A DNA stretch of 32,000 bases, taken from positions 810,001-842,000 of the forward strand of contig NZ_CP060530.1 in assembly GCF_016806735.1 (NCBI RefSeq), given 5' to 3'. Positions 348 through 18,015 of the stretch are shown here, piece after piece. Position numbers and translations under genes: made by a program. Position 1 is the first letter of the stretch. Every line of letters starts with the position of its first letter. Below the pieces are notes generated by a model. The model was not told where the DNA came from, did not search any database, and was given only the letters and a program-made list of their open reading frames with translations. The DNA comes from Candidatus Micrarchaeum sp. (GTDB taxonomy: Archaea > Micrarchaeota > Micrarchaeia > Micrarchaeales > Micrarchaeaceae).

Positions 348-731
348 TTATATTTGTTGCCCTGTGCTTTTGGATGCGCCCCTGCCCTGCTGCTTCAGCC
401 CGGGCATGTAGCTGAGCAGCGACAGGGCGTACATCAATATTATTATTGCGATGCCGGCTGCAACCGCGCCTAGGCTTCTCCCGGTTATTATTAGCAGCGC
501 CGCGAATATGACCCCTATTGCCAGGTACGATACGGTTTTCGAGTTGTACGAATCCCTGGCTTTCTTGTATTTCACGTAGCAATCCTTGCATACTACTAGC
601 CTGTAGTTCTTCTCATTGTGCGTAACGTTGTGCTTGAACCAGCGCAGCGATTTTATAACATAGTCGTCTTTCACTTCGAGCCCGTTGAGCTCCTTTCCGC
701 ATATTATGCATCTTGTCTCCTTTTTCATCAT
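348..731 (-). CDS. small zinc-ribbon membrane protein (N-terminal CxxC...CxxC, two C-terminal TM helices)
   Basis: 127 aa starting ATG-ATG. Motifs CIICGKEL ... VVCKDCYVKY form a 4-Cys ribbon, followed by hydrophobic segments AIGVIFAALLIITG and AVAAGIAIIILMYALSLL. It starts 2 nt after the upstream gene's stop. Confidence 0.65.
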   Translation of the reverse strand: MMKKETRCIICGKELNGLEVKDDYVIKSLRWFKHNVTHNEKNYRLVVCKDCYVKYKKARDSYNSKTVSYLAIGVIFAALLIITGRSLGAVAAGIAIIILMYALSLLSYMPGLKQQGRGASKSTGQQI

Positions 732-733
732 AA

Positions 734-1039
734 TCAGCTAAAATTTATCGTAGCCTCAAAAATCCTCCCGGATTCTGCAAGGAGCTTCTGCTCGTCCATG
801 CTGTCTATGGTGCTGTTTATCGTTACGTCGTCCATGCCAAGCCTCCTGAGCACGTTTACGATTGCGTCCCTCTTCAGGTTTATTTTCTCCAGCATGCCTG
901 CAAACGCTATTGCGTTTATGTGCCTGTGGGCCTTCTCCATGTCCGAGAAGAGCTTGGCCATGCTCGATTCGTCCACCTTGTATATGGTGAGTATGCGCCT
1001 CAGCTCCTGCCTGCTTATCGTAAATGTGTCCTTAGCCAT
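734..1039 (-). CDS. hypothetical small soluble protein, translationally coupled to the upstream ATPase
   Basis: 101 aa with an ATG start that overlaps the ATPase stop by 8 nt. No TM segments and no motif I recognise. Confidence 0.55.
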   Translation of the reverse strand: MAKDTFTISRQELRRILTIYKVDESSMAKLFSDMEKAHRHINAIAFAGMLEKINLKRDAIVNVLRRLGMDDVTINSTIDSMDEQKLLAESGRIFEATINFS

Positions 1040-2549
1040 TCACAGCACCCACGGATGACATTATTCTGGTTATCAATAGGTCCTCTATGCTCAGGTTCTT
1101 GAGGAACTGGACTACGTCCTCGGTAGTTATGCCGTTTGACATAAGCAGGCGTATGAAGTCTAGTATCTTTGAGGACCTGTTCTGGTCGTTGAGGACCTTG
1201 AATATCGAATTTATGGCTTCTGTGCTTACGTTGTATTCTATGAACTTGTTCTTGAGCTCCTCCTCCTCGAACTGGTAGTCCTTCTGTATTATGCCGGCGG
1301 AAAGCTCGCTCTGTGTCAGTATGTCGGTTATGTCTAGCGTGTACACGTATAACGGTTCCTCTCCGCGCACCCTGTCAAGCACAAATATCTCCGGGAAGCG
1401 CAGCGATGTCTGGAATGCCATGTTGACAGCAGCCTGGCCCACGCCGAACTTGCTTATCTCGGAGCGTATGAAGTCGGAGAAGTTTATGGATCCCTGTATG
1501 TAATCGAGGAACTTTTCGAACCTTATCCTTAGTATGAAAGTTGTGCCTACGTTGGAAAATATGGCTTCGTTTATGTCCGTTGGATTCTGCGATGCCACTA
1601 TTAGGCCGAACTGGTATTTTCTGCCCTCCCTGACTATCATGACCGCGTCGCTCTTCTCATCTCCCGCTATCTTCCATGCCTCGTCGAGAACGACAAGGGT
1701 CTTAAGCCCTTTTGCCTCGTTCCAGCCCTCGAAGCGCATGCGTTCCTTGAGCGTCTGAAGTATGAAAAGGGCGGCAAGAGCCCTGAACCTCTCGTCAGGA
1801 AGGCCAGACAGGTCTATGTCGACAAGCCCCGAGTTCGCGAGCTTTTCGAGGTTGACAGTGCTTTTCCTTGCGAAGTAGTCCTCTCCCTCTCGTGCGAACT
1901 GCCTTAGCCTGTATATCGCATTTTCGAGTTCGGCAGGATATTCGTAGGTGCCCTCCTGCAGCTGCTCTTCAAGTATCGATATCGCGTCCTTTAGCGTTGG
2001 CGCTTCCTTGTCCTCCGGCGCAGGTTCGGCAAGAACAAAGCCTGCATTGGTGTACGATTGCTCTATTGCTTCCTCGGTAAGCCTGCGCTGCTCCGGATAC
2101 GAGGCTATGTCGGTAAGTATCTCGAATGACGAAAGTATCTGCTTGACCCTGTCCAGCGGCTTCATGCCGGAAAGGTCCATTATGTTTAGGTAGTCGCCCT
2201 TGCCCAGCGATACTATTATGCCATCGCTCTGCTTGACCCAGGCGCGGTATTCTGCTGCCCAGTCTATTATAACGGCATTGGTGTTCCATATATAGCTGGC
2301 CCTTATCAGGAATGTCTTGACAAAGTAGCTCTTTCCCGCTCCGGTTATTCCCACAACCGCTATGTGCGGATTTGTAAGGTTGGTGAACGACCAGCTGAAC
2401 GGGACCTTGAAAAGCTTGGTGTTGCCTATGAATATTGCCTGGAACGGGTCGTTTATCAGTATGTTTGCCGGCGGCTCCGGCGGCCTCGACAGGAAGGCCC
2501 TTTTGCCCACCTCGTTGCTCATTATATTCTGCAATTTCAGTATGCTCAT
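1032..2549 (-). CDS. VirB4/TrbE/CedB-like (HerA/DUF87-AAA_10 superfamily) P-loop ATPase lacking a long N-terminal domain
   Basis: 505 aa. Walker A GITGAGKS lies at nt 2328-2351 and Walker B LVVLDEAW (DEAW) at nt 1674-1685. A downstream REGRKYQFGLIVASQNPTDI matches the RK...(A/T)TQ..D pattern typical of VirB4/TraC-type ATPases. There are no GspE/FlaI-type Asp/His boxes. Confidence 0.8.
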   Translation of the reverse strand: MSILKLQNIMSNEVGKRAFLSRPPEPPANILINDPFQAIFIGNTKLFKVPFSWSFTNLTNPHIAVVGITGAGKSYFVKTFLIRASYIWNTNAVIIDWAAEYRAWVKQSDGIIVSLGKGDYLNIMDLSGMKPLDRVKQILSSFEILTDIASYPEQRRLTEEAIEQSYTNAGFVLAEPAPEDKEAPTLKDAISILEEQLQEGTYEYPAELENAIYRLRQFAREGEDYFARKSTVNLEKLANSGLVDIDLSGLPDERFRALAALFILQTLKERMRFEGWNEAKGLKTLVVLDEAWKIAGDEKSDAVMIVREGRKYQFGLIVASQNPTDINEAIFSNVGTTFILRIRFEKFLDYIQGSINFSDFIRSEISKFGVGQAAVNMAFQTSLRFPEIFVLDRVRGEEPLYVYTLDITDILTQSELSAGIIQKDYQFEEEELKNKFIEYNVSTEAINSIFKVLNDQNRSSKILDFIRLLMSNGITTEDVVQFLKNLSIEDLLITRIMSSVGAVNG

Positions 2550-2559: not shown

Positions 2560-3390
2560 TCAGCTCTGGTTATCGAACATCGTCGAAAGCTCCTTCATGC
2601 CCGTGGGGAGCGAGAAATTGAAGTTGAAAAGCGAATAAAGCTCGCGGCCGATTATCCTTGAGGTTTCTACGTCCATAGAACTGAACGACAGCCTTAATTG
2701 GTTTACCTGCGCGTCAAGCGCGTCAAGAGCGGCCTTCTCGCTTACCCCTATCGCAGTGGTTTCTATGTACATGACTGTGGCTATTGGCTTCTCGCCCTGG
2801 GATATCCTGTTTATCTTGGCCTGTATCATGTTCATTCTCCTTCTTATGTCCGTTAACGTGACCTCGTTCGAATTGTTCTGCATTGCCCTCGACAGCTGAA
2901 ATTCCTGGTAAGAGCGCTTGCCCTCGAGCTCGTCCCTTATGCCCTGGACGTCAAGGCCTGAGGCAAGGACATGGAACTTGAAAGGGAAGTTTATGTTCAT
3001 CACTATGCGCTCCCAAAGCTCCGGCGCGCTTATCATCTTCTCCTCGTCATCTTCCGGAGCGGATTCCTCCCTGAAAGTATAGGCGAAGAGGTTGGCGGTG
3101 ATATAGCCGGTTGCGTAGAATATGCCGTTCACTTCCTTTATAACGGCGTTCTGGTGCTTGTTGATCGTGTAATCCTTCGCAGGCTGGAAGGTTATTCCAA
3201 GTATTGAGGTTATTGCAGAGAAAAGCTTCGCGTCTATCCAGTTCATCGCAAGTATGAAAAGGGTAGTTATAAGCAATAGCAACACGCCTATGTAGTATAA
3301 TATCCCCTTGCCGAGCTCATGCAATGCCAGGAATCCGAAAAGCACTATTATAAGCGAAAAGAGGAGGAATACGAGCTTTGTTTCGTCCAT
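2560..3390 (-). CDS. 2-TM anchored protein with a soluble C-terminal domain; paralog of the 3390..4223 product
   Basis: 276 aa. N-terminal hydrophobic helices are LVFLLFSLIIVLFGFLAL and ILYYIGVLLLLITTLFILAM. It shares colinear patches with the neighbour: VIKEVNGIFYATGYI / ILRKSGENFIATVYI, EDDEEKM / EDDEKL, and IATVMYIETTAIGVSEK / FELSTYMTVSATGVKEY. Confidence 0.75.
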   Translation of the reverse strand: MDETKLVFLLFSLIIVLFGFLALHELGKGILYYIGVLLLLITTLFILAMNWIDAKLFSAITSILGITFQPAKDYTINKHQNAVIKEVNGIFYATGYITANLFAYTFREESAPEDDEEKMISAPELWERIVMNINFPFKFHVLASGLDVQGIRDELEGKRSYQEFQLSRAMQNNSNEVTLTDIRRRMNMIQAKINRISQGEKPIATVMYIETTAIGVSEKAALDALDAQVNQLRLSFSSMDVETSRIIGRELYSLFNFNFSLPTGMKELSTMFDNQS

Positions 3391-4223
3391 TATATTACCT
3401 GTTCCTGTATGTTTTTGCTTATCTGTTCCGTTACCGTCGAAATCGGCAGGAGGTATTCGGGCTCGACAAACCTAAGCAAGTCCGCACCGGTTATTATGCT
3501 AGGCGGGACTCCGAATATGGATCCCACTCCGGACATCAGCTCCTTGGCTTTCTGCTGGGCCAGGCTCGATGCTTCATATTCCTTGACACCGGTTGCAGAC
3601 ACTGTCATATAGGTGCTTAGCTCGAAGGAAAAGCCCTTGCCTATGCTGTCCAGCATGTTGCGCCACATGGCCAGCTTGCCACGGACTCTGTCCAGTTCGT
3701 TCTTCGGCGCGTCCTTGGACTGAAGGTCTGCCTCCTCGTTCTCAGTCATCGTTATCCTTTCCTTGAGCTTCTGTATATAGGAGTCCTTGTTCATCACGTA
3801 GAGCTCCGAGGTATACCTTACCGGATCTTTTGAGAGGCCGACAAGCCTGCTTATTTGCTGTGAAAAGTCTAGTTTTTCGTCATCCTCCATTTCTGTGGCT
3901 GACCTGTACAACGGTATCGATATGTAGACAGTAGCTATAAAATTTTCTCCGGACTTGCGCAGTATCGTATCTCCAGACTGGGCAAGCCAGTATGGATTCT
4001 CGTTGCTAAGTATTACGTGCTTCTTTCTGTGTTTAAGCAGCGGACCAATCAAGTATGAGTAATATCTGGAGGTAAATGCCATTGCGTCCAATACGAGAGA
4101 GATAAAGAATAATATTATTTTTATGTATGAGGGAAGCAGCAGAGAAGGGACAAACATCACTATGCCCATTAACACCGCAGATGCCAGGATTAAACCTACG
4201 AACATCCCCACGTAACTTGCCAT
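3390..4223 (-). CDS. 2-TM anchored protein with a soluble C-terminal domain; paralog of the 2560..3390 product
   Basis: 277 aa with an ATG start. Its stop overlaps the next gene's ATG by 1 nt (TAATG). N-terminal TM helices are followed by a charged, coiled-coil-like soluble domain. Confidence 0.75.
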   Translation of the reverse strand: MASYVGMFVGLILASAVLMGIVMFVPSLLLPSYIKIILFFISLVLDAMAFTSRYYSYLIGPLLKHRKKHVILSNENPYWLAQSGDTILRKSGENFIATVYISIPLYRSATEMEDDEKLDFSQQISRLVGLSKDPVRYTSELYVMNKDSYIQKLKERITMTENEEADLQSKDAPKNELDRVRGKLAMWRNMLDSIGKGFSFELSTYMTVSATGVKEYEASSLAQQKAKELMSGVGSIFGVPPSIITGADLLRFVEPEYLLPISTVTEQISKNIQEQVI

Positions 4224-4295: not shown

Positions 4296-5921
4296 TTATA
4301 TAAACTTGGCGCGCGCCCTTCCGCTCATGCGTGCGGCTCCGCCTATGAAATTCGCAAGTTGCACGACGAAGGCGTACGTGACCGCGCTTATCAGTGCAGG
4401 ATAGAACAGTATCAGCAGCCAGAAGCTGTTCAGTGAGCTGCTTATGCCTGAAAGGGTAATGACGAGCGGGCTTGAAGGCGTCACAGCGTTATTGACTGCG
4501 CCTTTGCCTACGCTGTACCTGTTGAGCAAAGCCGCAACGTTGTTCATCTGTGTAGCGAGATGCGGAGCAGTGAAATAGAAGGCAACCGCAAATAGGAGGG
4601 GCATTACAAAATAGAATCCGGCGGCAAGGGCTATAAGTATGCCTCCGAGCGACCTCGTTGGAAGCAGAACCCTTAATATGACTCCCGGTATCAGGAAAAC
4701 GGGTATGGCTGCAATTGCGAAAAATACTATTAGATAGTATTCGGCGTACAGCGCCAGTATCCCGTCGTATATGAAGCCGGAAACTACCGCTGTGGGCTCT
4801 ATGAAATATATGTCAAGCGGAAGCAGCGAATATTTTACCACAGTGCCTGTCAGGTTGAGCTGCGGCACAGCAGGCACGCTTAAGTCTACGGACAAGGTGC
4901 TTAGGTACATGTCGTAGTCGTAGGCGTGGAACAGGCCGGTGTATACGTTCTCTGCCGAATTTATTGTAGTAGTTATAAGATGCAGAGAAGTAGCGTAGGG
5001 ATTTATCGCACCGACGAAAACCCCGGGAATAAGGCCGAATATCACGGCGCTAAGATAAACGAAAAATGCTACGATTATGGCACTTGCCACTGCTTCGTAT
5101 AGTTCGCCTATGCCGAAGTTGCGTATCTTGTTGTTTTTGATTCCGGCTCCGACCATGAATATGCCCCCTGCTATGAGGAAGGCTATCATAACGACTATGA
5201 ATGCTATCGGTATGTCTTTCTGCCAGGATAGGTACAGCGATTGGTTTATCGGGCAGTACCATGGCTCGTTCGAGCCCAGGCTCTTTGCCAGGCTTGGTGG
5301 AAGGAAGCCGCACTCTATCTTGGGCGGCGTTGAAGAGGGAGAGCAAGCGATGTATCCCGAGGGACAACCGTTGGTTGGGCCGCTGCTCTGATACTGGCAA
5401 TTGGACGGGCAAGAACTTCCAACAGTTGACGGAAGGCATTCATTGCACGAATAAAAAGCAGTCGTTGTTGTGGATGTGGTTGTTGTAGACGTAGAAGTTG
5501 TCGAGGTGGAAGTTGTGGAAGTAGATGTTGTTGTTGACGTTGTTGTTATTGACGACGAGGTAGTTTTTACAGTAGTTGTAGAAGTTGAGGTAGTAGTTGT
5601 TACACATACTAAGGCCCTGCTTGTTGTTCCAGGACAGTCGAAATGCTCGACCTTGCAGTCGCCTATTGGACAGCTGACCTCTGTCCCGCATTCGTCGCAA
5701 TTGCTGTATTGCGTCATTATCGGTATGCTTAATGTGCTTAAAGTGGAATCGGAAGTGCCTGCATATGCGTATCCGGATGTTGAGTTGATTGCACCGACTG
5801 GCTGCTGGTGCTGGACGTTATGAGGCGCATAGAAGTACGATGCATAGGCCAAGGCAACGGCTATAATTACCGCGTATAGGACGAATGCCATTAATCTCTT
5901 TTCGTTTTGCAAAACTTGCAC
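4296..5921 (-). CDS. polytopic membrane protein, paralog 6 of 6 (RxxPxTRxxGG family), with an N-terminal Cys-rich plus poly-Thr/Ser ectodomain
   Basis: 541 aa. A GTG at 5919-5921 abuts the upstream stop; an alternative ATG at 5889-5891 would give MAFVLYAV.... It has a signal-anchor, two Cys modules flanking a 47-aa T/S run, then the family core (GELYEA ... ILRVLLPTRSLGGILIALAAGFYFVMPLL ... GGAARMSG tail). Confidence 0.8.
   Translation of the reverse strand: MQVLQNEKRLMAFVLYAVIIAVALAYASYFYAPHNVQHQQPVGAINSTSGYAYAGTSDSTLSTLSIPIMTQYSNCDECGTEVSCPIGDCKVEHFDCPGTTSRALVCVTTTTSTSTTTVKTTSSSITTTSTTTSTSTTSTSTTSTSTTTTSTTTTAFYSCNECLPSTVGSSCPSNCQYQSSGPTNGCPSGYIACSPSSTPPKIECGFLPPSLAKSLGSNEPWYCPINQSLYLSWQKDIPIAFIVVMIAFLIAGGIFMVGAGIKNNKIRNFGIGELYEAVASAIIVAFFVYLSAVIFGLIPGVFVGAINPYATSLHLITTTINSAENVYTGLFHAYDYDMYLSTLSVDLSVPAVPQLNLTGTVVKYSLLPLDIYFIEPTAVVSGFIYDGILALYAEYYLIVFFAIAAIPVFLIPGVILRVLLPTRSLGGILIALAAGFYFVMPLLFAVAFYFTAPHLATQMNNVAALLNRYSVGKGAVNNAVTPSSPLVITLSGISSSLNSFWLLILFYPALISAVTYAFVVQLANFIGGAARMSGRARAKFI
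5461..5598 (-). repeat. low-complexity (ACN/AGN)n coding repeat encoding a Thr/Ser run
   Basis: The + strand reads gtcgttgttgtggatgtggttgttgtagacgtagaagttgt.... The minus strand encodes VTTTTSTSTTTVKTTSSSITTTSTTTSTSTTSTSTTSTSTTTTSTTTT. Confidence 0.85.
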
Positions 5922-7037
5922 CTATATGAAATTTGAAAGCAAAGCCATAAAGCTTACCTTTTCGCCTATCGCCTTCGAAAAATCAACTATGAAAGCGTCC
6001 AGTATTATGAAGTTTATGAATGGTATGAATGTCAGTCCAGCTATGACGTACCCGAGCCCAAGTATAAGCCCGCTTGGAAGCAGAGGCAGAGTACTGCCAT
6101 AAGCGAACGTTATGAAGTCCACTATCGCAGATGGAAGAAGCGCGAAGGCCCCGGTGGCGGATATCATGTTCGCGTCTATGAACCCGTATGTTATGCTTAT
6201 CAGAAGAGGGTATATTACGCCGAGGCCCAGGCCGAACGCTATCATCGCGCCTCCGAATGTCCTCGTTATGCCGAAGAGCCTTGCAAACACTCCGAGCGTT
6301 ATGAAAAATATCAGGAACAGTATAGATCCGGATATCAATATTAGCTGCAGGTTGTTTAGCACTAAGAAGAATATCAGGGCAGACATTCCGGAGCCCAGCA
6401 TGCCTTCAAGCCCGTCGGGCATGACGCTCGTAAGCGAGGAGGATATCCCAAATCCTTCGATAGGCTCAAAGCCGAATTCGATTCCCGGAGATGAGCCTGA
6501 GGCTAAGCCTATTACGGAAACAAGGTCAAAATACCCAAGCGCATTGTTGGAAAATGTGCCTATGTCGCATGCCGACAGGTTGAACAGTGTGTTTATGCTT
6601 GGAGTGCTGCACTCTTTTGGGAGCAAGCCCACGGAATTGTAGTAGGTTGAGGGATTTATCAAGAACAGGTAGAAAAGCCCCAGGAATATAAGCAGCAGCA
6701 CTATGGAAAGCAGAGCTTCGTATATCTGTATCTTCGCCCAGTTTTTGGCGTTTGAGCTGTTGATTACGCTCGCGATTATGTAAATAAATGCCGAGATTGT
6801 TATTACTATCAGGACCACTATTATTGCGAGGCCCATGCTGACTACAGGAGGAGTTATGCTGGTGAGCATTATTGGGAATGCTTTTATCTGGGCCAAGATG
6901 CCTGGATGCGACAATATATATGTCTGCAGGCCGTTCTGAACAAAAGCACCTGAACCGGTTCCTGAAGCACCGGCAAGCGGGGCGAGCGCTGCCAAGAGAA
7001 GCACAATGACCGCAAGCATAGATATTTTCATTGTCAC
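5922..7037 (-). CDS. polytopic membrane protein, paralog 5 of 6 (RxxPxTRxxGG family)
   Basis: 371 aa. Start is either GTG at 7035-7037 (GTGA overlap with the upstream stop) or ATG at 7029-7031. Signal peptide MKISMLAVIVLLLAALAPLAGASG. Family motifs: IQIYEA, FARLFGITRTFGGAMIAFGLGLGVIYPLL. Confidence 0.8.
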   Translation of the reverse strand: MTMKISMLAVIVLLLAALAPLAGASGTGSGAFVQNGLQTYILSHPGILAQIKAFPIMLTSITPPVVSMGLAIIVVLIVITISAFIYIIASVINSSNAKNWAKIQIYEALLSIVLLLIFLGLFYLFLINPSTYYNSVGLLPKECSTPSINTLFNLSACDIGTFSNNALGYFDLVSVIGLASGSSPGIEFGFEPIEGFGISSSLTSVMPDGLEGMLGSGMSALIFFLVLNNLQLILISGSILFLIFFITLGVFARLFGITRTFGGAMIAFGLGLGVIYPLLISITYGFIDANMISATGAFALLPSAIVDFITFAYGSTLPLLPSGLILGLGYVIAGLTFIPFINFIILDAFIVDFSKAIGEKVSFMALLSNFI

Positions 7038-8161
7038 ACCAGACCCTTGAGTGCATTCCCGCTTGAAAGGCTCGGCGCGCCAAGATAATCGCCCATAGTC
7101 TCGGCGAAGTCAAGCGAAAGCATTATCGATATCACCACTCCGATTATTACGTATATGCTGGGTGCCACGACACCCTCTATGAAACTTATGAGCATGTCAC
7201 CGCTTATAAAGTTGGCAAGGTAAGACAGGCTTGATACCGGGTTCCCGGAGAACGACGACAGGCTGAATATCGAGGTGTCGAACGTAGTAACCGGCACGTT
7301 AGAGAAGGATACGCTTGTGACGAAGCCGAGTAGAAGCGGAAGCAGTATGTAAAAGCCTATGAAAAGCCCTATGAAAGCCCCGCCTGCCGCACGTGTCCAT
7401 GGTATTGTTCTTAGTACAATCCCAACATAGAGGAATATTGGAAACAGGCCGTATATTATGGCAAGAAAAACCGATAGGCCGAAAAACAACGCTATTATTA
7501 TGCCTGTGAATTCCATCATCATTTTTATTATCTGGTTGACGACAGTAAGTCCCACATAAGGAAGGAATGAGAACCCGAAATAGTTTGGCGCTACGTTTAT
7601 GGTCGTATGCGAAACGATGCTGTAATAGTCCTGTATTATGGTAAGAGACCTGAAATCCGAAGTCGTATTAAGCGCGGTAAGCGTCATAGTATAGCAGTCA
7701 TGGCTGAAAATCCCGTAGAAATTGTAGTTGGAGAATATCCTTCCCGGAGAAGTGCCTCCGGTTATGGCAGCCATTGAGCCAAGCAGGACCAGCAGTATTA
7801 TGAGCGATATGGCTATTTCGCCCATCTCCGTTTTTGAAAAATTGACAAGCAGGTTTATCCCGAGGGCGTACCCTATCGCCCACGCCATTCCGACTATGGC
7901 GAAGATAAGCGCTATTATGGATATTGATATCGTGAAAACTCCGCTGGAAAGCGCGTTCCCAGAAGTTATTTCTGTAGATGATGGTATTATCCCATTAGAC
8001 GTCACAACCCCGTTGGCATTCGTAGTCCCGACGCAGAACGAAGAAGCTTCGCCTGAATAGCCGGCATGGGCCGAGGCAGGGAGCACAACCAGAAGTAGCA
8101 ATAGCAATGCCAGCACAGGCATGCCCCTTGCAGTCATTCCAAATCTTCCAGATGCCATCAT
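7034..8161 (-). CDS. polytopic membrane protein, paralog 4 of 6 (RxxPxTRxxGG family)
   Basis: 375 aa with an ATGA overlap with the upstream gene. Signal peptide ...VLALLLLLLVVLPASAHA. Family motifs: GEIAIS, VLRTIPWTRAAGGAFIGLFIGFYILLPLL. Confidence 0.8.
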   Translation of the reverse strand: MMASGRFGMTARGMPVLALLLLLLVVLPASAHAGYSGEASSFCVGTTNANGVVTSNGIIPSSTEITSGNALSSGVFTISISIIALIFAIVGMAWAIGYALGINLLVNFSKTEMGEIAISLIILLVLLGSMAAITGGTSPGRIFSNYNFYGIFSHDCYTMTLTALNTTSDFRSLTIIQDYYSIVSHTTINVAPNYFGFSFLPYVGLTVVNQIIKMMMEFTGIIIALFFGLSVFLAIIYGLFPIFLYVGIVLRTIPWTRAAGGAFIGLFIGFYILLPLLLGFVTSVSFSNVPVTTFDTSIFSLSSFSGNPVSSLSYLANFISGDMLISFIEGVVAPSIYVIIGVVISIMLSLDFAETMGDYLGAPSLSSGNALKGLV

Positions 8162-9663
8162 ACCAACCTCGACAAGCCCGCAAGGGATGTGTCACCGCCC
8201 AGCAGGCCGGACACCCCGATTATTGCGGTCAAAACTATTATTATGTTTATTATTGGAAGGAAGTATGCACTTATCCCGAATACGCCGTAAGATCTTGCCA
8301 CCAGGTAGTTTGTATTCAGCGCCTGGGATCTGTTGCAGGCATACGTTATCCCGAGTGTGCCGGTTGGCGGAGTCGGGTTATGGTTTGCAAACGCTATTAT
8401 GGAACTGAATATAACTCCGCCGTTGGCATACGGTATCAAGAGATCCTGCGTATCTGCCTGTTCCGTCTCAAAAAGGTTCCCGTTGTGCGGCCAGCAGCCG
8501 CCATATATTGCTATTGCGCTTATGTTAGGCATTATGTAGAAATTCGTCACATACGGCTCCCCGGTGCTGTTTGGAATGAAGTACGTGCTGTTCGTGAATA
8601 TATTTCCGAACCCGTAATAGCTGCCTATGTCGTTTGCAGAATATGAACCTGGAGTTATGGCGCCTGAAGAGCCAGATGGAGGCACATATCCCAGGGATGG
8701 GCCAAGCCCGTGAGCCAGCGAAAGGTATTCTATTGAAAATATCAGAGGGAAGAATATCACGCCTGCCACAGCTATAGCAAGCAGGAGCCCGCCTATTTTT
8801 CTTGTGAACGGAGTCGCCCTTAGTATTATCCCAACGAACAGGAAGTAAGGCCATGCGTATAGGAATATTGACAGAAGCGTCAGCTGGGCTATGAAGGATT
8901 CCAGAGCTGCGGTCAGAAGGTCTCCAAGCGCTGCCAATGATTTATATATCAACGAGTATCCTGCGAACGGAGTAATTGAATAGTGTATCAGCAGCTCCGG
9001 TGGATCCGGGAGCGGAAGCACGCATTCCGGTATTATTGGAATAGGGGGATCTCCCGGCGATATGCATATGTTTAGCGAGGGCGATAGCTTTTCCAGGAAG
9101 CCGACATAGGAATCGAATATGAAGAACGAATTCAGGTTTGTCGCCGTCTGGTTTGTAACGTTGGCTATTATGACACCCGTAGCCGCAAGCGGATAGTCAA
9201 CCTTCTCGGTAAACGTCTGCTTGTTGTTTTGCTTTACCAGGGCGCACAGGCCTGGGAAGCCGCTGGCACTCGAAGAATAAAGCAGCGAGGAACCAGTAGG
9301 GGACAGCGATGAATTCAGAAGCGTAAGCATTGACGTGGAGTTTATGCCCTTGCACATGTTGAATATTGCCGATGGAGACATCAGCGATGTGGATGAAGTG
9401 GCTGAATAGAAGGTGTTTGCGAAGATTACCAATATTCCGGCGAGCACTGCCACCAGCAGCGCGGTGCCGAAAACCTGGTAGAATTCGCCCATTGCAGTGG
9501 ATTTTATCTTGTTGTTGTTAAGAACAGCTCCTGCGAAATACCACAGCGCAACTATGGCAGCGTCTATGAATATCGCTATTGCTATTATTGGAAACATCTC
9601 CGTTGATATGGAGCTGTAGCTGGTGATTTGAAGCAGCGGAAACAGAAGCGACAAATCCATCAT
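8158..9663 (-). CDS. polytopic membrane protein, paralog 3 of 6 (RxxPxTRxxGG family), with enlarged extracytoplasmic loops
   Basis: 501 aa with an ATGA overlap with the upstream gene. Family motifs: GEFYQV, ILRATPFTRKIGGLLLAIAVAGVIFFPLI. It carries several N-X-S/T sequons and paired Cys in its loops. Confidence 0.8.
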   Translation of the reverse strand: MMDLSLLFPLLQITSYSSISTEMFPIIAIAIFIDAAIVALWYFAGAVLNNNKIKSTAMGEFYQVFGTALLVAVLAGILVIFANTFYSATSSTSLMSPSAIFNMCKGINSTSMLTLLNSSLSPTGSSLLYSSSASGFPGLCALVKQNNKQTFTEKVDYPLAATGVIIANVTNQTATNLNSFFIFDSYVGFLEKLSPSLNICISPGDPPIPIIPECVLPLPDPPELLIHYSITPFAGYSLIYKSLAALGDLLTAALESFIAQLTLLSIFLYAWPYFLFVGIILRATPFTRKIGGLLLAIAVAGVIFFPLIFSIEYLSLAHGLGPSLGYVPPSGSSGAITPGSYSANDIGSYYGFGNIFTNSTYFIPNSTGEPYVTNFYIMPNISAIAIYGGCWPHNGNLFETEQADTQDLLIPYANGGVIFSSIIAFANHNPTPPTGTLGITYACNRSQALNTNYLVARSYGVFGISAYFLPIINIIIVLTAIIGVSGLLGGDTSLAGLSRLV

Positions 9664-10862
9664 AAGCTCTCCCAGAACGATGCAGGCCCTTCTATGCCGA
9701 CGTTGAGCCCTCTTGCAAGCCCCATCGCAAAGCCGATGGTGACTGCAAGGTTAAGTCCGAAAAGGAACACTGCAACGAATATGAACTGCGACATCTGCTG
9801 CGTTATGTATGCCGCAGCAGGCTCTGGATCTATTGTAAGCGAAGAATAGAACGAAGATGAAAGTACGTTATTGACCGCCGGTGTGGATATGCCGAGCGCA
9901 CCGGTTATGCCGCCCAAAGCGTTGCTGCTGCTGCTTGTCACGCTTGTGCTGAGGAAGGACGAAGATGGAAGACTGGGCAGGGTATATGCGGTGCTCAGGC
10001 AGTTGGTGCAGCCATATGCCGGATTCAGCGCCGGGCTGTATATCCAGTAGACGATATAGCTGTCAAAGGCTATCATCAGCGGGTATATTATATACGCTGC
10101 GATTGCTATGGCAAGTATTGCGTTTGATGCGGATTTTAGACCGTTGCCGCCATAGGGTATCAGCCTTATCAGTATGGCAACCGGCAGTATTACGGTAAAC
10201 GCAGTATATTCCAGAAGGGGCAGCGCCAGGTATTGCAGATAAAGCATGCCTATGGTTATCACCAATATTGGCGACAGGGCATCGAAATAGACGTCTGAAA
10301 GCGCACCGTAGAGGGAGCCGAGGTCATGCTCGTAGGTGATGCCGAACGACAGTGCAGAGTCCCCGCCGGTACTGAAACCCAAATCCTGGGAAAGCGCAGT
10401 TATGACCCTAGCTTCTATGGCATAGCCTATGGATGTTGAGTATATGTATCCCAGCAGGTTTATTCCGTGGTTGAGAGCCAGCGTTCCTATGTAGTAATCG
10501 GCATACTGGAACGGGCTGAGCCCATTGGCATTGGAAACTCCGGCGCTGGCAAGCACTTGTGAGCCGAGGCTACTCGATAGGTTGCATGCGGCCGTGGTCA
10601 TGGAAAGCAGTATGAGTATTATGAATACGCCGATGAATATCTGCGTAATCTCCGACTTTGTCACCTCCCTGAGCCTGCTGCTTACCGATGGCGGCGTAAG
10701 CCTGCTGACCATGTACAGTATGGCCACTATCAGGAAACCGAGTGCTACAACCAGATATGTGAGTGGCAGCCAGCCGCTTATATACGGAGAGGCAGGGCCC
10801 CCGAAGAGCTGGCAGTAGTTTATTGCCGTTGTTGTAGCAGCTAAAATGAACATTATACTCAC
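9660..10862 (-). CDS. polytopic membrane protein, paralog 2 of 6 (the most divergent member)
   Basis: 400 aa. Start is GTG at 10860-10862 (GTGA overlap) or ATG at 10851-10853. Motifs are degenerate: SEITQI, LIRLIPYGGNGLKSASNAILAIAIAAYIIYPLM. The C-terminal tail GLARGLNVGIEG resembles the other paralogs. Confidence 0.75.
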   Translation of the reverse strand: MSIMFILAATTTAINYCQLFGGPASPYISGWLPLTYLVVALGFLIVAILYMVSRLTPPSVSSRLREVTKSEITQIFIGVFIILILLSMTTAACNLSSSLGSQVLASAGVSNANGLSPFQYADYYIGTLALNHGINLLGYIYSTSIGYAIEARVITALSQDLGFSTGGDSALSFGITYEHDLGSLYGALSDVYFDALSPILVITIGMLYLQYLALPLLEYTAFTVILPVAILIRLIPYGGNGLKSASNAILAIAIAAYIIYPLMIAFDSYIVYWIYSPALNPAYGCTNCLSTAYTLPSLPSSSFLSTSVTSSSSNALGGITGALGISTPAVNNVLSSSFYSSLTIDPEPAAAYITQQMSQFIFVAVFLFGLNLAVTIGFAMGLARGLNVGIEGPASFWESL

Positions 10863-12163
10863 GCTATCTTGAATTTGCCTACGCCCAGGCTTAGCTTTCC
10901 GCCGAGCATCTGGGCAAGGGCTCCCGCAATCACTATCGTTATGACTATGTCAAATATGAAAAGTATCAATTGCAGCAACACTCCGTACGTATAGAAGTTT
11001 ATGAAGTTTATTGAAGGATATATTGAACCGCCGTCATTATTAAACAATGTTGCCAGGGCCGAATCCTGCCCGTTGTTGAATACAGCAGTGTAGATAGAGC
11101 TATATGTTTGCCCACTTGTTATTTGCTCACTTATCAGGTAACCGGAAGAGAGGCTGAAAGCCAAACTTGCCGGGCCGCAGGCTATGTCCTCAAAAAAGTT
11201 GAAAGTTATGTAATTGCATGATTGCGCCGGTGCATAGCTGGCGCTCTGGCTGAATATAAGAGGCAATATGAAGTTCTGTATGGGAAGGTTGAACATTATT
11301 AATAGGGCAGGGAAGATGAGCGCTATTGCTATGCCTATGGCTATGAATGAGCCGCCCAAGCCCCTGAGGAATGGAAATGCCCTGAACACTATGCCTATGG
11401 GTATGAACAGTGTCAATCCGGCAATCACTATTGAATAAAGATCCACGCTAAGGACGCTGAAGACTATGTATACTGGAACCAGCACTATGGTTATTATGTC
11501 CTTTATGAACGAGAACCCTGGAAGCGCGGTGTCAGACTCTATTACGGAACTTGCAAGCAGAGCCGCATTGGATGAACCAAACTGGATTGCACCGACAAAA
11601 GGCAGAGGTATGGGTATCCATTCAGTTATTGACGCTTTTTTTAGGTCTCCGGTCCCTGTTGCTAATCCTTCCAGGCCGTAGTAGGATTCATTTACCATCA
11701 GCATATCCGGATTCACGTAGCTGGCCAAGACTGATGAGTAAAGCGCGTTTAGATTTTCTCCAACCGCACTGGTTATTCCGGATTGCGACCCTGGTATGTA
11801 GGAAACAGGTATGCTGCTTCCCGTAAGGCCCAGGGCCAAGCCCCCAAGTATTATCAGGACTGCAAAAATCAGCACTATCAATATTATCGTTTTTGTTGTT
11901 TCCCATAGCTCGCCTTTGTACCAGTTCTTAAGCGATGGAAGGTTGAAAACATTGCCAAACATGAACGCCACGGCAACCATGGCGAATGAGACAAGAAGGC
12001 CGATTACGGCAAGAGGTATTGCGCTTTCTATGCAGACACCAGCTTGCGTTATTGGCACGCTCTGACCCGTAAGCGCGCACGTTATGTCTGTGCTAGATGC
12101 GTTGGAATAGCCAATCAATGAGACAACGGCTATTGCTAACAGCAAAAGTGCAGCGCTTCGCAT
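10859..12163 (-). CDS. polytopic membrane protein, paralog 1 of 6 (RxxPxTRxxGG family)
   Basis: 434 aa with ATG at 12161-12163. Signal peptide MRSAALLLLAIAVVSLIGYSNASS. Family motifs: GELWET, VFRAFPFLRGLGGSFIAIGIAIALIFPALL. Tail: QMLGGKLSLGVGKF. Confidence 0.8.
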   Translation of the reverse strand: MRSAALLLLAIAVVSLIGYSNASSTDITCALTGQSVPITQAGVCIESAIPLAVIGLLVSFAMVAVAFMFGNVFNLPSLKNWYKGELWETTKTIILIVLIFAVLIILGGLALGLTGSSIPVSYIPGSQSGITSAVGENLNALYSSVLASYVNPDMLMVNESYYGLEGLATGTGDLKKASITEWIPIPLPFVGAIQFGSSNAALLASSVIESDTALPGFSFIKDIITIVLVPVYIVFSVLSVDLYSIVIAGLTLFIPIGIVFRAFPFLRGLGGSFIAIGIAIALIFPALLIMFNLPIQNFILPLIFSQSASYAPAQSCNYITFNFFEDIACGPASLAFSLSSGYLISEQITSGQTYSSIYTAVFNNGQDSALATLFNNDGGSIYPSINFINFYTYGVLLQLILFIFDIVITIVIAGALAQMLGGKLSLGVGKFKIA

Positions 12164-12206
12164 AATATTATTTTCAAGGATAAGTATTTAGTTGTGTGAC
12201 AGTCGT

Positions 12207-12216: not shown

Positions 12217-12267
12217 CGTTGTCCTTGGTGCCAATAGCTTGAAAAGGGGCAATTATGCATGGGCTTT

Positions 12268-13002
12268 TTAGGTATGGCTAAGTATCTTGAATCTCCTTAT
12301 GTAGGATTCGCTTTGCAGCACTATCAGGAATGGAAGCACTATGAAGGAATCTATGACAAGCGATGCGTACATAGAGACGTACGAGCCTGAGCCTATTATG
12401 GGTATTAAGTCAACAACGCTAAGAAGCACGAAAGATGCAAGTACCCACAGCAGGAAATACTTGAAGTGGTTTTTCATGAAGCCGAGGCTGTGCCCAATGG
12501 CCCTCATTGTCCTGGTGTCGTCTATCACTATGGACGTAGGGGCATAGAACAGGAATGGTATGAGAACGATCGCAGTGATGAGCGTGGCTATGCCAGAATA
12601 CCCGGTATAATACGTAAGGAAGCTTACTAGCACCAGAAGCGCGGTAAAGAGAAGAAGCACCACGAAAACATTGGCAGTGTATTTCTCCAATCCGTCTATT
12701 ACCTCTTTCCTGATCCTGGTCGCAGTATGGCTGTGCTTTACTATGACATTTATTGCGACTATGGCAAAGCTAAGGAATAGAAGCGAAAACATCGTAGAGG
12801 CCACTATTATTATCGCGTCTATGAAATTCAGGTTCAGGTATATGCTTCCGGTCCGAATGAATATTGAGCCGAGGTCGTTGTACGTAGGAAATGGAGCGAA
12901 CACCGGTATCAGAAGGGCGATTACGAACGCTATCGAGAAAAGCAGTATCAGCTTCAAATTTTTTTTGTAGGTGCTGAATGAGACCTCAATTATGTTAGCC
13001 AT
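12268..13002 (-). CDS. polytopic (about 6 TM) membrane protein, function unknown
   Basis: 244 aa with ATG at 13000-13002. It is almost entirely hydrophobic helices separated by short basic loops (KHSHTATRIRKE, KNHFKY). It lies between the pilin-like gene and the paralog array. Confidence 0.7.
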   Translation of the reverse strand: MANIIEVSFSTYKKNLKLILLFSIAFVIALLIPVFAPFPTYNDLGSIFIRTGSIYLNLNFIDAIIIVASTMFSLLFLSFAIVAINVIVKHSHTATRIRKEVIDGLEKYTANVFVVLLLFTALLVLVSFLTYYTGYSGIATLITAIVLIPFLFYAPTSIVIDDTRTMRAIGHSLGFMKNHFKYFLLWVLASFVLLSVVDLIPIIGSGSYVSMYASLVIDSFIVLPFLIVLQSESYIRRFKILSHT

Positions 13003-13112
13003 CGGTTTACCACGTTTATGATTGCAAATGACCGCAAGTTCAGATTATTAGAAGTTTAACACAATAAATAGATTTCGGTATGCGCAGGAATTGCGCATGC
13101 TAAGCGTCCCTG

Positions 13113-13180
13113 GAAAACGAAATCAAAAAAGAGGTAAAAAAGAAAGAAATAGAAAGCATGCCGAAGCCGCTTTTGGCTTC
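13113..13180 (-). terminator. hairpin plus long T-rich tract directly after the VirB2-like gene
   Basis: The minus strand reads TGA-AGCC AAAAGC GGCTTC, a 6-bp stem (13175-13180 / 13163-13168) that overlaps the stop codon. It is followed by GGCATGCTTTCTATTTCTTTCTTTTTTACCTCTTTTTTGATTTCGTTTTCC. Oligo-T tracts are the known archaeal termination signal. Confidence 0.6.
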
Positions 13181-13565
13181 AGCAATAAGAGGATATGGTC
13201 GAGGATGACGTGCTCGTTAGCAGCCCCAGTATGTATGGTGCAAGCTCGGCTATTATCACGCCTATAACCCCGCCTATTATCATGCTCATTCCATATCCCT
13301 GTATTGAACCCTTGCTCTGTGCGGGCATTATGTGCGCAGCCGCATATAGGGCTCCGCCCAGTATCATAAGGGTCAATCCGAGTATGAATATGCCTGTGTT
13401 TACGGCCACATATATGGGGCATATTACGCTGCTTATAGTTACTTGTATGCTAGATTGTGCCGAAGCAGTAGCTAGAGTAAGAAATGGGAGCAGCATAAGT
13501 ACAAGTTTGAACACGCGGGACTGTACTATCTTCATTAAACTTAATGTTTTTGTTTCTATAGGCAT
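13179..13565 (-). CDS. small secreted two-helix membrane protein; candidate VirB2/TrbC/CedA1-like conjugative-type pilin
   Basis: 128 aa. Start is ATG at 13563-13565, or the internal M at 13535. Sec-type signal MKIVQSRVFKLVLMLLPFLTLATASA|QSS. The mature part of about 92 aa is two hydrophobic helices (ICPIYVAVNTGIFILGLTLMILGGALYAAAHI and MSMIIGGVIGVIIAELAPYILGLL) joined by a short loop with one basic residue (PAQSKGSIQGYG), followed by a Ser/Thr tail. Confidence 0.65.
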   Translation of the reverse strand: MPIETKTLSLMKIVQSRVFKLVLMLLPFLTLATASAQSSIQVTISSVICPIYVAVNTGIFILGLTLMILGGALYAAAHIMPAQSKGSIQGYGMSMIIGGVIGVIIAELAPYILGLLTSTSSSTISSYC

Positions 13566-13851
13566 TTTGGCACCCGATCAGATATATTGACTTACTTTTA
13601 TATGATTGAATAATTTAAATAGTTTTCTATCATCTGATAATTGCTGCATTACCCAGTAGGGTTTATTTTGCATTGAGTGTGCCAACTAGAATCCGGATTG
13701 GCGTTATTATCGGTTTATGCTGCATATGCTAGCGCATAAGATGCTAACACATAAAGAATTAACATTTTAAATAGATACAAAAACCATGGTGCCTGGTTTT
13801 ATTGGCGCAATATGATTAACATGCACATTTTGCTCTTGATGCTGTGATTAC

Positions 13852-15558
13852 ATGTATGTTTTAGGCTTGTGGGATGGGCACGATGCAGGTGCTGCGCTGC
13901 TTGAGGATGGCAACATAGTCTATGCTGCGAACGAGGAGCGCTTCACCAAAAGAAAGCTGGAGATGAAGTTTCCATACAATTCAATAAGGGCAGCATTGGA
14001 CTATGCCCAGATAAAGCCCACGGATATAGAGAATATAACTTATACTACAACCGAATTCACAAAAACGCTTGAGCGCATATACCCCGGAATGAAAGAGAGA
14101 TACTACTTGTTCAGGCGCAGGAAGATCCCCAAACCGAGATTTGAGGGATTCATGCACAACTTAAAGTACAGCATGACAGGAGTCGGAATACTTCCCCTGT
14201 GCAATACCGTTAGCTCTTCAATAATATCCAGGCAGCTCAGGCACATGGGGTTCAAGAACTTCAAATTGAGGGTAGTGGAGCACCATACCGCGCATGCAGC
14301 CACAGCGGCGTTTACCTCCGGTTTCAAAAAATCCCTGGTAATAACGCTTGACGGGCTTGGCGACGGGCTTTCAGGCTCTGTAAGCACATTCGACAACGGC
14401 AAGCTCGAAAGGCACATATCGATACCTGCAAGGGACTCGCTCGGCATATTCTTCGAGCAGATAACGAACATAATAGGCATGAGGGAGCTTGAGGACGAGG
14501 GAAAGGTTATGGCAATGGCCGATTACTCATATCCGTTCGACTTCGACAGCAACAAGCTCAAGGACATGTTCAGGGTCGAGGGCACGATAATAAGCGCAAA
14601 GTACAATGCCAGAAAGCAGTTCGCCAAGCTGCAGAGCATAGGCTGGCAGATGCCAAGGGAGCAGTTCTCGTACATGGCCCAGCAGCTGCTTGAAAACATA
14701 GTTGTAAAGTTCGTTAGCAACGTTGTGGACAGATTCAGCATAGGCGACGTGGTGCTGGCCGGAGGGCTTTTCTCGAACATAAAGGCGAACATGAAGATAA
14801 GGAAGCTGGAGAATGTCAAGCACTGGTACGTTTTCCCGCACATGGGCGACGGAGGCATAGCGCTTGGCAGCGCGCTTTACACGGATTATGAGCTTAACGG
14901 CAGTACAAGCCATGATTTTTCCGCCTATTTGGGCAATGATTACGATGCTGAAACCACTATGCAGGCGCTCAAGAAGGACAGATCCCTTGAAACCGCAAAA
15001 GAGAGCCATGCGGAGCAGGCAAGGCACGCGGCCGAGCTGATAAGCAACGGCAACTACGTGTTCTGGTTCCAGGGCAGAATGGAATATGGACCAAGGGCCC
15101 TCGGAGACAGGAGCATACTGGCACCTCCGGATTCCGAAAGCGTTAAGGAAAAGCTCAACCTTTACGTGAAGAGGAGGGAATGGTTCCAGCCATTCGCCCC
15201 TTCAATGCTCGAAGAGGATCTGGCGCGCGTAGTCGATTATGACAACAAGGGATATGACAGGTACATGACCATGGCTTACAGCGTAAAGGATTCGGCCAGG
15301 GATGCAACAAAGTCTGTAGTCAATGTTGATTATTCGGCAAGGCCACAAGCCGTCGGGCAGGAGAATCCGAATTACAGGGAATTGCTCGACAACATGAGGA
15401 AGCTCACAGGCTACGGGCTTGTCCTGAACACGAGCTTCAACCTTCACGGCATGCCAATAGTAATGACCCCAGAGGATGCGATAGCGACAATGAAGGCCAC
15501 GAAGACCAAATACATGTTTATAAACGGGGTCACTGTAACGAATAAGAGGGGCGTTTGA
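13852..15558 (+). CDS. carbamoyltransferase, NodU/CmcH family
   Basis: 568 aa. The N-terminus MYVLGLWDGHDAGAALLEDGNIVYAANEERFTKRK, together with HHTAHAA, GDGG and the C-terminal NTSFNLHGMPIV, is typical of the NodU/CmcH (Kae1-like fold) carbamoyltransferases. Confidence 0.85.
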   Translation: MYVLGLWDGHDAGAALLEDGNIVYAANEERFTKRKLEMKFPYNSIRAALDYAQIKPTDIENITYTTTEFTKTLERIYPGMKERYYLFRRRKIPKPRFEGFMHNLKYSMTGVGILPLCNTVSSSIISRQLRHMGFKNFKLRVVEHHTAHAATAAFTSGFKKSLVITLDGLGDGLSGSVSTFDNGKLERHISIPARDSLGIFFEQITNIIGMRELEDEGKVMAMADYSYPFDFDSNKLKDMFRVEGTIISAKYNARKQFAKLQSIGWQMPREQFSYMAQQLLENIVVKFVSNVVDRFSIGDVVLAGGLFSNIKANMKIRKLENVKHWYVFPHMGDGGIALGSALYTDYELNGSTSHDFSAYLGNDYDAETTMQALKKDRSLETAKESHAEQARHAAELISNGNYVFWFQGRMEYGPRALGDRSILAPPDSESVKEKLNLYVKRREWFQPFAPSMLEEDLARVVDYDNKGYDRYMTMAYSVKDSARDATKSVVNVDYSARPQAVGQENPNYRELLDNMRKLTGYGLVLNTSFNLHGMPIVMTPEDAIATMKATKTKYMFINGVTVTNKRGV

Positions 15559-17313: not shown

Positions 17314-17319
17314 ACTGCT

Positions 17320-17997: not shown

Positions 17998-18015
17998 GGA
18001 GTAACCGCATATTTC

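Follow-up and report, generated by a model that had tools for sequence, protein, structure and literature searches.

A Micrarchaeota gene that probably encodes a divergent VirB2/TrbC-class pilin, and the conserved locus that it heads

Between positions 810,001 and 842,000 of contig NZ_CP060530.1, from Candidatus Micrarchaeum sp., lies a 32,000-nucleotide stretch (hereafter the window, in whose own numbering all coordinates are given) in which a short minus-strand gene probably encodes the precursor of a divergent pilin of the VirB2/TrbC class, that is, of the type IV secretion or conjugative type. The gene heads a cluster of 11 genes, in which it is followed by a gene for a 244-residue membrane protein (m244), six genes for paralogous polytopic membrane proteins, a pair of related genes (x277 and x276) and the gene of a P-loop ATPase of the HerA/VirB4 class. 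Its place at the head of the cluster, noted in an initial annotation made from the sequence alone, recurs in most of 67 genomes, and the linkage to the ATPase is fixed across the phylum. This chromosomally fixed secretion-machine locus is conserved across host-dependent Micrarchaeota and previously undescribed, and may build a tube for host-cell contact. In the searchable literature, no such system is described in Micrarchaeota or other DPANN archaea, and no link between Micrarchaeota and VirB2 or VirB4 was found; the nearest precedent is the proposal that giant proteins of nanohaloarchaea carry VirB4-like domains (PMC10266531).

Membership in the TrbC/VirB2 Superfamily

The relationship to known pilins emerges at the level of the family. 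Pfam PF04956 (TrbC/VirB2) has a profile length of 98 and a curated cut-off of 27.9 bits, which the family consensus exceeds with 32.4 bits (E 1e-7) over the whole profile, as do the individual members P0025 and P0031 (29.8 and 29.6 bits). When 35 members are scanned, 21 match PF04956 and nine match PF18895 (T4SS_pilin); the next-best unrelated transmembrane (TM) families in the same scan reach E values of about 0.1, which marks the noise level. Because neither the reversed consensus nor any of eight shuffles that preserve layout and composition gives a TrbC match at E<=1, the PF04956 match is not an artefact of hydrophobicity.

Several results weigh against the assignment. The window protein by itself scores 15.9 bits against PF04956 (E 0.016, profile positions 7-96 of 98), which is below the cut-off. 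Searches of the PDB sequences with the window protein (phmmer) and with the family profile (hmmsearch) return no pilin and only a calcium channel at E 4.9, so that the family profile recovers no pilin of known structure even though VirB2 is in that set. Alignment of the family to Agrobacterium tumefaciens VirB2 (sequence of PDB 8cue) with hhalign yields an insignificant probability of 3.7%. A Foldseek search of the PDB with the pilin model retrieves only generic helical hairpins such as SmhB/AhlB, all with E above 0.1 and the best at 0.49, two-helix folds being poor discriminators. As for the neighboring genes, the ATPase resembles HerA helicases about as much as it does VirB4, and the six paralogues show no detectable likeness to VirB6, TrbL or CedA by Pfam or by PDB sequence and profile searches.

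On the strength of these profile comparisons, we place the family in the TrbC/VirB2 superfamily as a divergent branch, of which the window sequence alone would not be recognized as a member. The VirB2/TrbC identity proposed initially is therefore upheld for the family and not for the single protein. The comparison with TrbC/VirB2 that was suggested along with it succeeds at the family level against PF04956 and remains insignificant against a single VirB2, and the suggested superposition on solved pilins recovered generic hairpins and no conjugative pilin.

The Pilin Gene and Its Product

The open reading frame (ORF) is a real gene under purifying selection. Substitutions relative to four orthologues, counted at codon positions 1/2/3 of the minus frame, number 10/3/51, 18/8/65, 22/7/63, and 25/9/65, and are thus concentrated at the third position. 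An overlapping plus-strand ORF (13195-13590) was considered and rejected as an antisense artefact, since the substitution pattern fits the minus frame.

The start of the 128-residue product is supported over an alternative start at Met11 by two features of the aligned orthologues, namely the conservation of residues 1-10 and an invariant GGTG motif, which resembles a Shine-Dalgarno sequence and precedes the first ATG by 6 nt. The homologue P0004 (Ca. Micrarchaeum sp. AZ1, JJ59_03905) is entered in the database with 118 residues and is identical from Met11 onward; its true start is likewise indicated to be the upstream ATG, giving 128 residues, rather than the annotated Met11.

The product is exactly the sequence given in the initial annotation, and its parts read as described there, from the leader ending in ATASA↓QSS (the arrow marks predicted cleavage) to the mature portion of about 92 residues, with one lysine in its loop and a Ser/Thr-rich tail ending in cysteine. 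The predicted leader comprises 36 residues, MPIETKTLSLMKIVQSRVFKLVLMLLPFLTLATASA before QSS; on inspection its n-region contains basic residues, its core is hydrophobic, and positions -3 and -1 are occupied by small residues. It was judged by this inspection and by conservation of the small-x-small↓Q junction, which the family alignment shows to be kept in many members. The loop, PAQSKGSIQGYG, occupies residues 81-92 with its single Lys, and the C-terminal tail is TSTSSSTISSYC. AlphaFold2, supplied with a 35-sequence alignment, places helices at residues 3-34 (the leader), 40-77, and 82-117, with core pLDDT (predicted local distance difference test) values of 86-94. The model is a helical hairpin, in agreement with the two-helix architecture first proposed.

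Distribution, Conserved Features and Variants of the Family

The pilin family appears to be confined to Micrarchaeota (DPANN). A set of 5.8 billion proteins contains 93 homologues, all named ones coming from Micrarchaeota or from metagenome-assembled genomes (MAGs) labeled 'Marsarchaeota'. An exhaustive hidden Markov model search yields 348 clusters at 50% identity, and species-representative genomes provide 67 loci, virtually all of them from Micrarchaeota. A search of 2.9 million viral contigs and 72,556 plasmids gave no family match. Contigs bearing the locus are also binned as 'Methanothrix sp.' (L001), as 'Candidatus Acidiferrales bacterium' (L032) and, in several cases, as 'Marsarchaeota'; these are probably mis-binned or mislabeled MAG contigs.

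The family alignment has the conserved core IFILGLTLMILGGALYAGAHxMPGQSKGxxQGYGMGMIxGGVIGVIIAxxAPYIL. The length of the loop never varies; within it P81, G86, Q89, G90, and Y91 are invariant and residue 85 is K or R. Variation in length is limited to the stretch between leader and helix 1, at the mature N-terminus, and to the C-terminal tail. Cys49, at the start of helix 1, and Cys128, at or near the C-terminus, are both present in 128 of 130 full-length members.

In relatives, extracellular-looking domains of 300-1300 aa are fused N-terminally to the pilin module, which places the pilin N-terminus outside the cell. Since both ends of the mature protein are predicted to lie outside, a disulfide between Cys49 and Cys128, either intramolecular or between neighboring subunits, can reasonably be inferred. 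An intramolecular bond would recall the head-to-tail cyclization once proposed for VirB2/TrbC pilins. The proteins with such fusions, of 500-1300 aa (for example P0105 and P0153), end in the pilin module after Ser/Thr/Cys-rich regions of Ig-like appearance, and are candidate adhesin-bearing minor pilins of a surface fiber.

Two further kinds of variant occur in relatives. Where the window lineage has one small pilin, many others have arrays of two to six pilin-domain genes, situated upstream of the m244 orthologue (loci L014, L024, L026, L028, L036, L039, and L057). There are also tandem 'polypilins', single ORFs in which four to seven complete modules follow one another without an intervening leader, each bearing a Cys pair of its own. 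Besides the two ORFs listed in Table 1, these include P0094 (1071 aa, seven units), P0095 (632 aa, four units, on a 488-kb contig), and P0096. Arrays, fusions and polypilins are all absent from the window lineage.

Promoters, Terminator and Spacer

The pilin gene seems to be transcribed as a unit of its own. Seven orthologous upstream regions share the invariant block GAAAnCTATTTAAATTA, in which a transcription factor B recognition element (BRE) and TATA box were assigned by inspection. At the other end of the gene, a GC-rich hairpin (10 pairs, of which six are G-C, with a loop of 6) covers the final Cys codon together with the TGA stop, and is followed by a 46-nt tract that is 67% T, including T6 runs at 13136-13141 and 13125-13130, both less than 60 nt past the stop. 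The T-rich tract thus corresponds to the roughly 45 nt first reported, and the hairpin is present as reported, with a stem of 10 pairs instead of six.

This hairpin ranks first among 12 terminator-like sites in 1-14000, a total that is at chance level (12.3 in shuffles). Folded as a whole, the terminator region has an unexceptional energy (z = -1.6), and a hairpin criterion of -10 kcal/mol does not discriminate, being passed by 61% of controls. Among related loci, a run of at least five T occurs in the spacer between the pilin gene and the next gene in 36 of 43 (84%), compared with 11% of 130-nt control segments; at the stop, 23 of 43 (53%) have a hairpin with an energy of -15 kcal/mol or lower, compared with 20% of controls. 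A GC hairpin with a T-rich tract after it is retained in all eight orthologous spacers examined. Because the hairpin sequences themselves differ (GAAGCC...GGCTTC, ATGGGCA..TGCCCAT, TGCGGC..GCCGCA, and others), the element is kept as a structure and not as a sequence. These comparisons support a conserved hairpin and oligo-T terminator, and with it a pilin gene that would form its own transcription unit.

The spacer to the m244 gene measures 176 nt, and both genes lie on the same strand. The sequence ACCGAAATnTATTTATTG follows the T tract, precedes the m244 start by about 60 nt, and is the only long invariant block of the eight spacers; it is read as a second BRE/TATA element and putative promoter of the machinery genes. 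These sequence elements are therefore best read as two predicted transcription units, one consisting of the pilin gene alone and the other of the machinery genes under a promoter of their own.

The perfect 7-bp inverted repeat ATGCGCA-N5-TGCGCAT, which abuts the downstream BRE, had been pointed out initially and is present in the window, and it is not conserved. None of the 68 fetched loci contains it, and it is lost even in relatives whose pilins are 88-93% identical, which rules it out as a conserved operator; it is either strain-specific or due to chance. The half-site TGCGCA is not enriched in the window (nine copies against 15 expected). Three of these nine palindromes fall within 260 bp at the pilin 3′ end and in the spacer (13081-13086, 13092-13097, and 13333-13338), and they are not conserved in relatives.

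The Machinery Genes

By tblastn, most Micrarchaeota loci long enough to show it have the pilin, m244, the six paralogues, x277/x276, and the ATPase in the same order. Some loci have extra genes inserted, and a shorter variant consisting of pilin, x277, x276, ATPase, s101, and s127 is found in L042, L034, and L019. In L020, L036, L013, and L050, the pilin genes lie 0.6-7 kb from the m244 gene or elsewhere. The best-conserved partner is m244, with 45-57% identity across the phylum.

The six paralogues are related by pairwise BLAST (1e-5 to 3e-7) around a shared core, and profiles of two of them, A4 and A5, align with an hhalign probability of 97.7%. Neighboring members of the array either abut or share 4 nt of coding sequence, an arrangement that points to coupled synthesis in equal amounts; that the six might form a hetero-hexamer to match a hexameric ATPase is an attractive speculation. 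The AlphaFold model of the 375-residue paralogue (p375; pLDDT 79.6) has no significant Foldseek match, with TrwI/VirB6 (7o3v_F) appearing at rank 14 (E 4.1, template-modeling scores of 0.19/0.26), which leaves room for a remote relationship. In the last paralogue, p541 (4296-5921, minus strand), the extracellular N-terminal half contains Cys-rich segments and a stretch of some 50 residues, nearly all Thr or Ser (TTTTSTSTTT...), that looks like an O-glycosylated stalk.

The ATPase, of the HerA/VirB4/FtsK class, has Pfam matches to DUF87 (1e-16), AAA_10 (4e-12), and the TraG P-loop (2e-9). Its NCBIfam matches, to CedD (2e-18), the VirB4-like CD1110 (1e-17), CedB (3e-16), VirB4_plasma (Mycoplasma VirB4; 5e-16), HerA (2e-14), and TIGR00929 VirB4 (5e-10), all fall well short of the equivalog cut-offs, with HerA models at a similar level. 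In the PDB, the VirB4 C-terminal domain 4ag5 gives the widest coverage (2e-7, residues 33-311), and HerA proteins are best by E-value. The protein begins directly with the catalytic domain and has no N-terminal VirB4 domain. As it consists of the catalytic domain only, it should need a membrane tether, for which the adjoining x277 and x276 are the obvious candidates.

These two proteins are paralogous (hhalign 93.7%). A weak match links x276 to the N-terminal residues 24-276 of the Mycoplasma VirB4 model (E 2e-4), in two of 11 orthologues only; as another Mycoplasma-derived model also appears, it may be composition noise. It is a weak hint that x276/x277 and the ATPase could together amount to a 'split VirB4'. 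Neither these two proteins nor m244 have convincing matches in Pfam, NCBIfam, or the PDB.

Alternative Explanations

The least probable alternative, and a very improbable one, is that the protein is a generic two-TM membrane protein, holin-like or accessory, which matches TrbC by its hydrophobic composition, and that the ATPase belongs to a HerA-type helicase system unrelated to secretion. Although the low score of the window protein on PF04956, the lack of a structural match to solved pilins and the rank of HerA proteins as the best PDB matches of the ATPase would fit it, shuffled and reversed sequences never match TrbC, and the consensus matches the whole profile at an E value far from the noise level of other TM families. 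Furthermore, the ATPase aligns over its whole catalytic domain with VirB4-type conjugal ATPases, as seen with CD1110 and 4ag5, and its gene lies among ten membrane-protein genes and not beside NurA, Mre11, or Rad50, the genes that normally accompany HerA. It is also unlikely, though less so, that a VirB2-related protein stays in the membrane as the small subunit of a translocon without a pilus, the six paralogues and the ATPase then forming a contact-dependent channel. Such systems exist among monoderm T4SSs (type IV secretion systems), those of the mating-pair formation class MPF-FATA lacking pili (PMC12102498), and VirB2-like segments have been noted inside VirB6/CedA by Beltran et al. (PMC9905601); polypilins of four to seven hairpins also resemble a polytopic membrane protein more than a polymerizing monomer. 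A gene with its own promoter and terminator, however, suits a subunit needed in large excess, and the arrays and adhesin-like N-terminal fusions of relatives are expected of the major and minor subunits of a surface fiber. The invariant loop length combined with variable termini points the same way, and the pilin family is unrelated to the p375 paralogue family (hhalign 1.5%).

A different question is how pilin and machinery would be expressed. The initial annotation had taken the cluster to be a single operon in which the hairpin and T tract act as a leaky attenuator, partial read-through setting a high ratio of pilin to machinery. The shared strand, the 176-nt spacer and the conservation of the terminator-like element are compatible with this, and a strong upstream promoter could contribute, by read-through, to expression of the genes downstream. 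The only invariant block of the spacer is nevertheless the BRE/TATA-like element past the T tract, between the terminator and the next gene, which would be the machinery's own promoter, and four loci evidently manage without linkage of pilin and m244 (L020, L036, L013, and L050). Since the machinery has its own predicted promoter, excess pilin need not come from partial termination, and the attenuator is a possible but disfavored account, slightly ahead of the pilus-less translocon in probability. A VirB2/TrbC-class pilin expressed from a separate unit remains the preferred reading.

Comparison With Known Systems

The minimal T4SS set, as in the Ced and Ted systems, consists of VirB2, VirB4, and VirB6. 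As judged by sequence, the protein described here belongs to the VirB2/TrbC superfamily at profile level, and the machine around it shares only the class of its ATPase with known T4SSs, Ced and Ted.

The likeness to TrbC/VirB2 pilins, represented by A. tumefaciens VirB2 (PDB 8cue/8exh), extends to the long cleavable leader with a small-x-small↓Q junction (AAA↓QS in VirB2, predicted ASA↓QS here), to a mature helix-loop-helix of about 70-90 aa with a basic loop residue, and to a cysteine at the start of helix 1 (NNICTF in VirB2, SVICPI here). The family-level Pfam match above the cut-off and the linked VirB4-class ATPase are further points in common. Unlike TrbC/VirB2 systems, the present one is archaeal, chromosomal, and phylum-wide, with no detectable relaxase, coupling protein, or VirB3/5/6/8-11, and similarity at the pairwise and PDB levels is insignificant. 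The near-invariant second, C-terminal Cys, the Ser/Thr-rich tail, and the adhesin fusions and polypilins of relatives likewise set the family apart.

With the pilins CedA1 and TedC of the Ced and Ted systems (PMC9905601), it shares an archaeal, chromosomal setting as a domesticated T4SS derivative in which a VirB2-like pilin is combined with a VirB4/HerA-class ATPase and no relaxase; the ATPase also matches the CedD and CedB models. Maturation of TedC, like that predicted here, involves signal peptidase I (Beltran et al. 2023, PMC9905601). The differences are that no sequence similarity to these pilins is detected, the family profile having no pilin match in the PDB, that the host lineage is DPANN and not Thermoproteota, and that six large paralogous membrane proteins stand in the place of a single CedA/TedA. 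Moreover, the ATPase lacks the TM and N-terminal domain of CedB/CedD, with two TM-anchored paralogues adjoining it instead (PMC11868833). The N-domains of CedB and CedD together resemble the VirB4 N-domain (PMC11868833), which the idea of a split VirB4 echoes.

The T4SS of Patescibacteria (candidate phyla radiation; PF04956/PF18895; PMC12102498) is similar in belonging to an ultrasmall, host-dependent lineage and in being chromosomal, relaxase-less, and lineage-wide. Its VirB2-like genes often form arrays of 2-11 variable copies (PMC12102498), compared with 2-6 in Micrarchaeota relatives, and the nine pilin-family members that match PF18895 add to the resemblance. This system is bacterial, however, and keeps recognizable VirB6, VirB3/PrgI, and TrsD homologues, none of which are recognizable here, whereas only the Micrarchaeota system has the six-paralogue array and the Cys pair.

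Proposed Mechanism and Significance

Pilins of the TrbC/VirB2 class polymerize with stoichiometric lipid into a hollow helical filament, and we infer that the Micrarchaeota protein also forms filaments. The precursor would enter the membrane via Sec and be cut at ASA↓Q, leaving the 92-residue hairpin in the membrane with both termini outside and the Lys85 loop inside. An ATPase-driven machine would then extract the subunits and polymerize them into an extracellular tube, in which the loop of invariant length would line the lumen and the variable termini would face outward. A Cys49-Cys128 disulfide, within or between subunits, might staple the exposed ends, and the Ser/Thr tail could be O-glycosylated. 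A strong monocistronic unit would uncouple pilin dosage from that of the machinery.

Given a chromosomal, phylum-wide locus that lacks a relaxase, the most likely function of such a pilus is cell-cell contact or exchange with the host, or DNA uptake as in Ced/Ted, rather than plasmid transfer. We lean towards host interaction on the grounds of phylum-wide chromosomal conservation in an obligately host-associated lineage, the adhesin-pilin fusions, and the precedent of the relaxase-less, essential T4SS of Patescibacteria. A bolder and rather doubtful extension holds that the locus encodes a phylum-specific, fixed, T4SS-derived machine whose VirB2-like pilin, stapled or cross-linked by a conserved disulfide and possibly glycosylated or carbamoylated by the enzymes of the divergently encoded module, forms an intercellular tube for exchange between these genome-reduced archaea and their Thermoplasmatales hosts, on a hetero-oligomeric base of six paralogues matching a hexameric ATPase, making it the archaeal counterpart of the essential Patescibacteria system.

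For Micrarchaeota (ARMAN), no molecular apparatus is known to have been assigned to the physical connection through which DPANN archaea draw on their hosts. The pilin offers a concrete candidate, being a defined and predicted secreted subunit that could be detected by mass spectrometry or antibodies, and the 11-gene locus is a candidate for deletion or imaging in existing co-cultures. A further point of interest is the resemblance to the T4SS on which Patescibacteria depend for epibiotic growth. If the assignment is correct, the VirB2 pilin superfamily would extend to a third archaeal lineage, with the terminal Cys pair, the adhesin-pilin fusions, and the tandem polypilins as new features.

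Genomic Setting and Neighboring Genes

The locus is part of the core chromosome and not a mobile element, conjugative plasmid, or integrative and conjugative element. It occupies the same chromosomal neighborhood in about 30 genomes, and no relaxase, coupling protein, or integrase was found among the window proteins scanned; the window also has no Rfam families and no tRNAs. The flank upstream of the pilin contains a glycosylation module together with Kae1/TsaD, a RIO/Bud32-like kinase, glutamate dehydrogenase, Dph2, L10e, and FtsZ. These housekeeping genes are seen on one flank only, as the other end of the locus reaches the edge of the window. The coordinates of all features are collected in Table 1.

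Table 1. Features of the pilin locus and its surroundings in window coordinates; the last two rows refer to loci of relatives.
Feature	Position	Strand	Basis or remark
Pilin precursor gene (128 aa + stop; probable divergent VirB2/TrbC family)	13179..13565	minus	ORF, Pfam, purifying selection, homologues
Signal peptide, aa 1-36, predicted signal peptidase I cleavage ASA↓QSS	13458..13565	minus	Inspection, family conservation, separate AlphaFold helix 3-34
Mature pilin, aa 37-128 (92 aa): helix 40-77, loop MPxxSKGxxQGYG, helix 82-117, Ser/Thr tail, Cys49 + Cys128	13182..13457	minus	Family alignment, AlphaFold, Cys counts
Shine-Dalgarno-like GGTG, 6 nt before first ATG	13571..13574	minus	Invariant in alignment of 7 orthologous upstream regions
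Putative pilin promoter, BRE/TATA GAAAACTATTTAAATTA, ~50 nt upstream of ATG	13611..13627	minus	Invariant block, 7 orthologous upstream regions
GC-rich hairpin, 10 bp, over last codon and TGA stop	13159..13184	minus	Folding; hairpins of different sequence at same place in relatives
T-rich tract, putative archaeal oligo-T terminator	13113..13158	minus	67% T over 46 nt; T5+ enrichment in relatives
Inverted repeat ATGCGCA-N5-TGCGCAT, perfect, abuts downstream BRE; function doubtful	13080..13098	none	Not conserved
Putative second promoter, BRE/TATA ACCGAAATCTATTTATTG, ~60 nt upstream of 244-aa gene	13062..13079	minus	Only long invariant block, 8 orthologous spacers
m244, polytopic membrane protein, 244 aa	12268..13002	minus	Next gene after pilin gene(s) in most loci; no known family
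Six paralogous polytopic membrane proteins (434, 400, 501, 375, 371, 541 aa)	4296..12163	minus	Shared R-x-x-P-x-x-R-x-x-G-G core; fixed order in relatives
x277 + x276, two N-terminal TM helices, basic cluster, ~210-aa presumably cytoplasmic domain	2560..4223	minus	Candidate ATPase membrane anchors
HerA/VirB4-class P-loop ATPase, 505 aa, catalytic domain only	1032..2549	minus	Pfam, NCBIfam, PDB
s101 + s127 (zinc ribbon plus TM), small genes after ATPase	348..1039	minus	Also follow ATPase in L042
NodU/CmcH-type carbamoyltransferase (module)	13852-15558	plus	
PMT_2-like lipid-linked glycosyltransferase (module)	15555-16859	plus	
158-aa protein (module)	16837-17313	plus	
GT2 glycosyltransferase (module)	17320-17997	minus	
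281-aa membrane protein (module)	18016-18861	minus	
Polypilin ORF, 847 aa, 7 pilin domains	L037:3043-5583		
Polypilin ORF	L068:3-1115		

A thioredoxin-fold protein (31213-31869) was considered as an extracellular disulfide catalyst and rejected, since it has no leader and is thus cytoplasmic. The small protein s101 (734-1039, minus strand) is faintly similar to residues 425-500 of the ATPase, its C-terminal extension (BLASTP E 0.03-0.13), and may be a duplicated ATPase C-terminal domain. The divergently transcribed glycosylation module (13852-18861) keeps its synteny with the pilus locus in about 30 fetched genomes, and its enzymes may attach glycans or carbamoyl groups to the Ser/Thr-rich tail of the pilin or to other surface structures.

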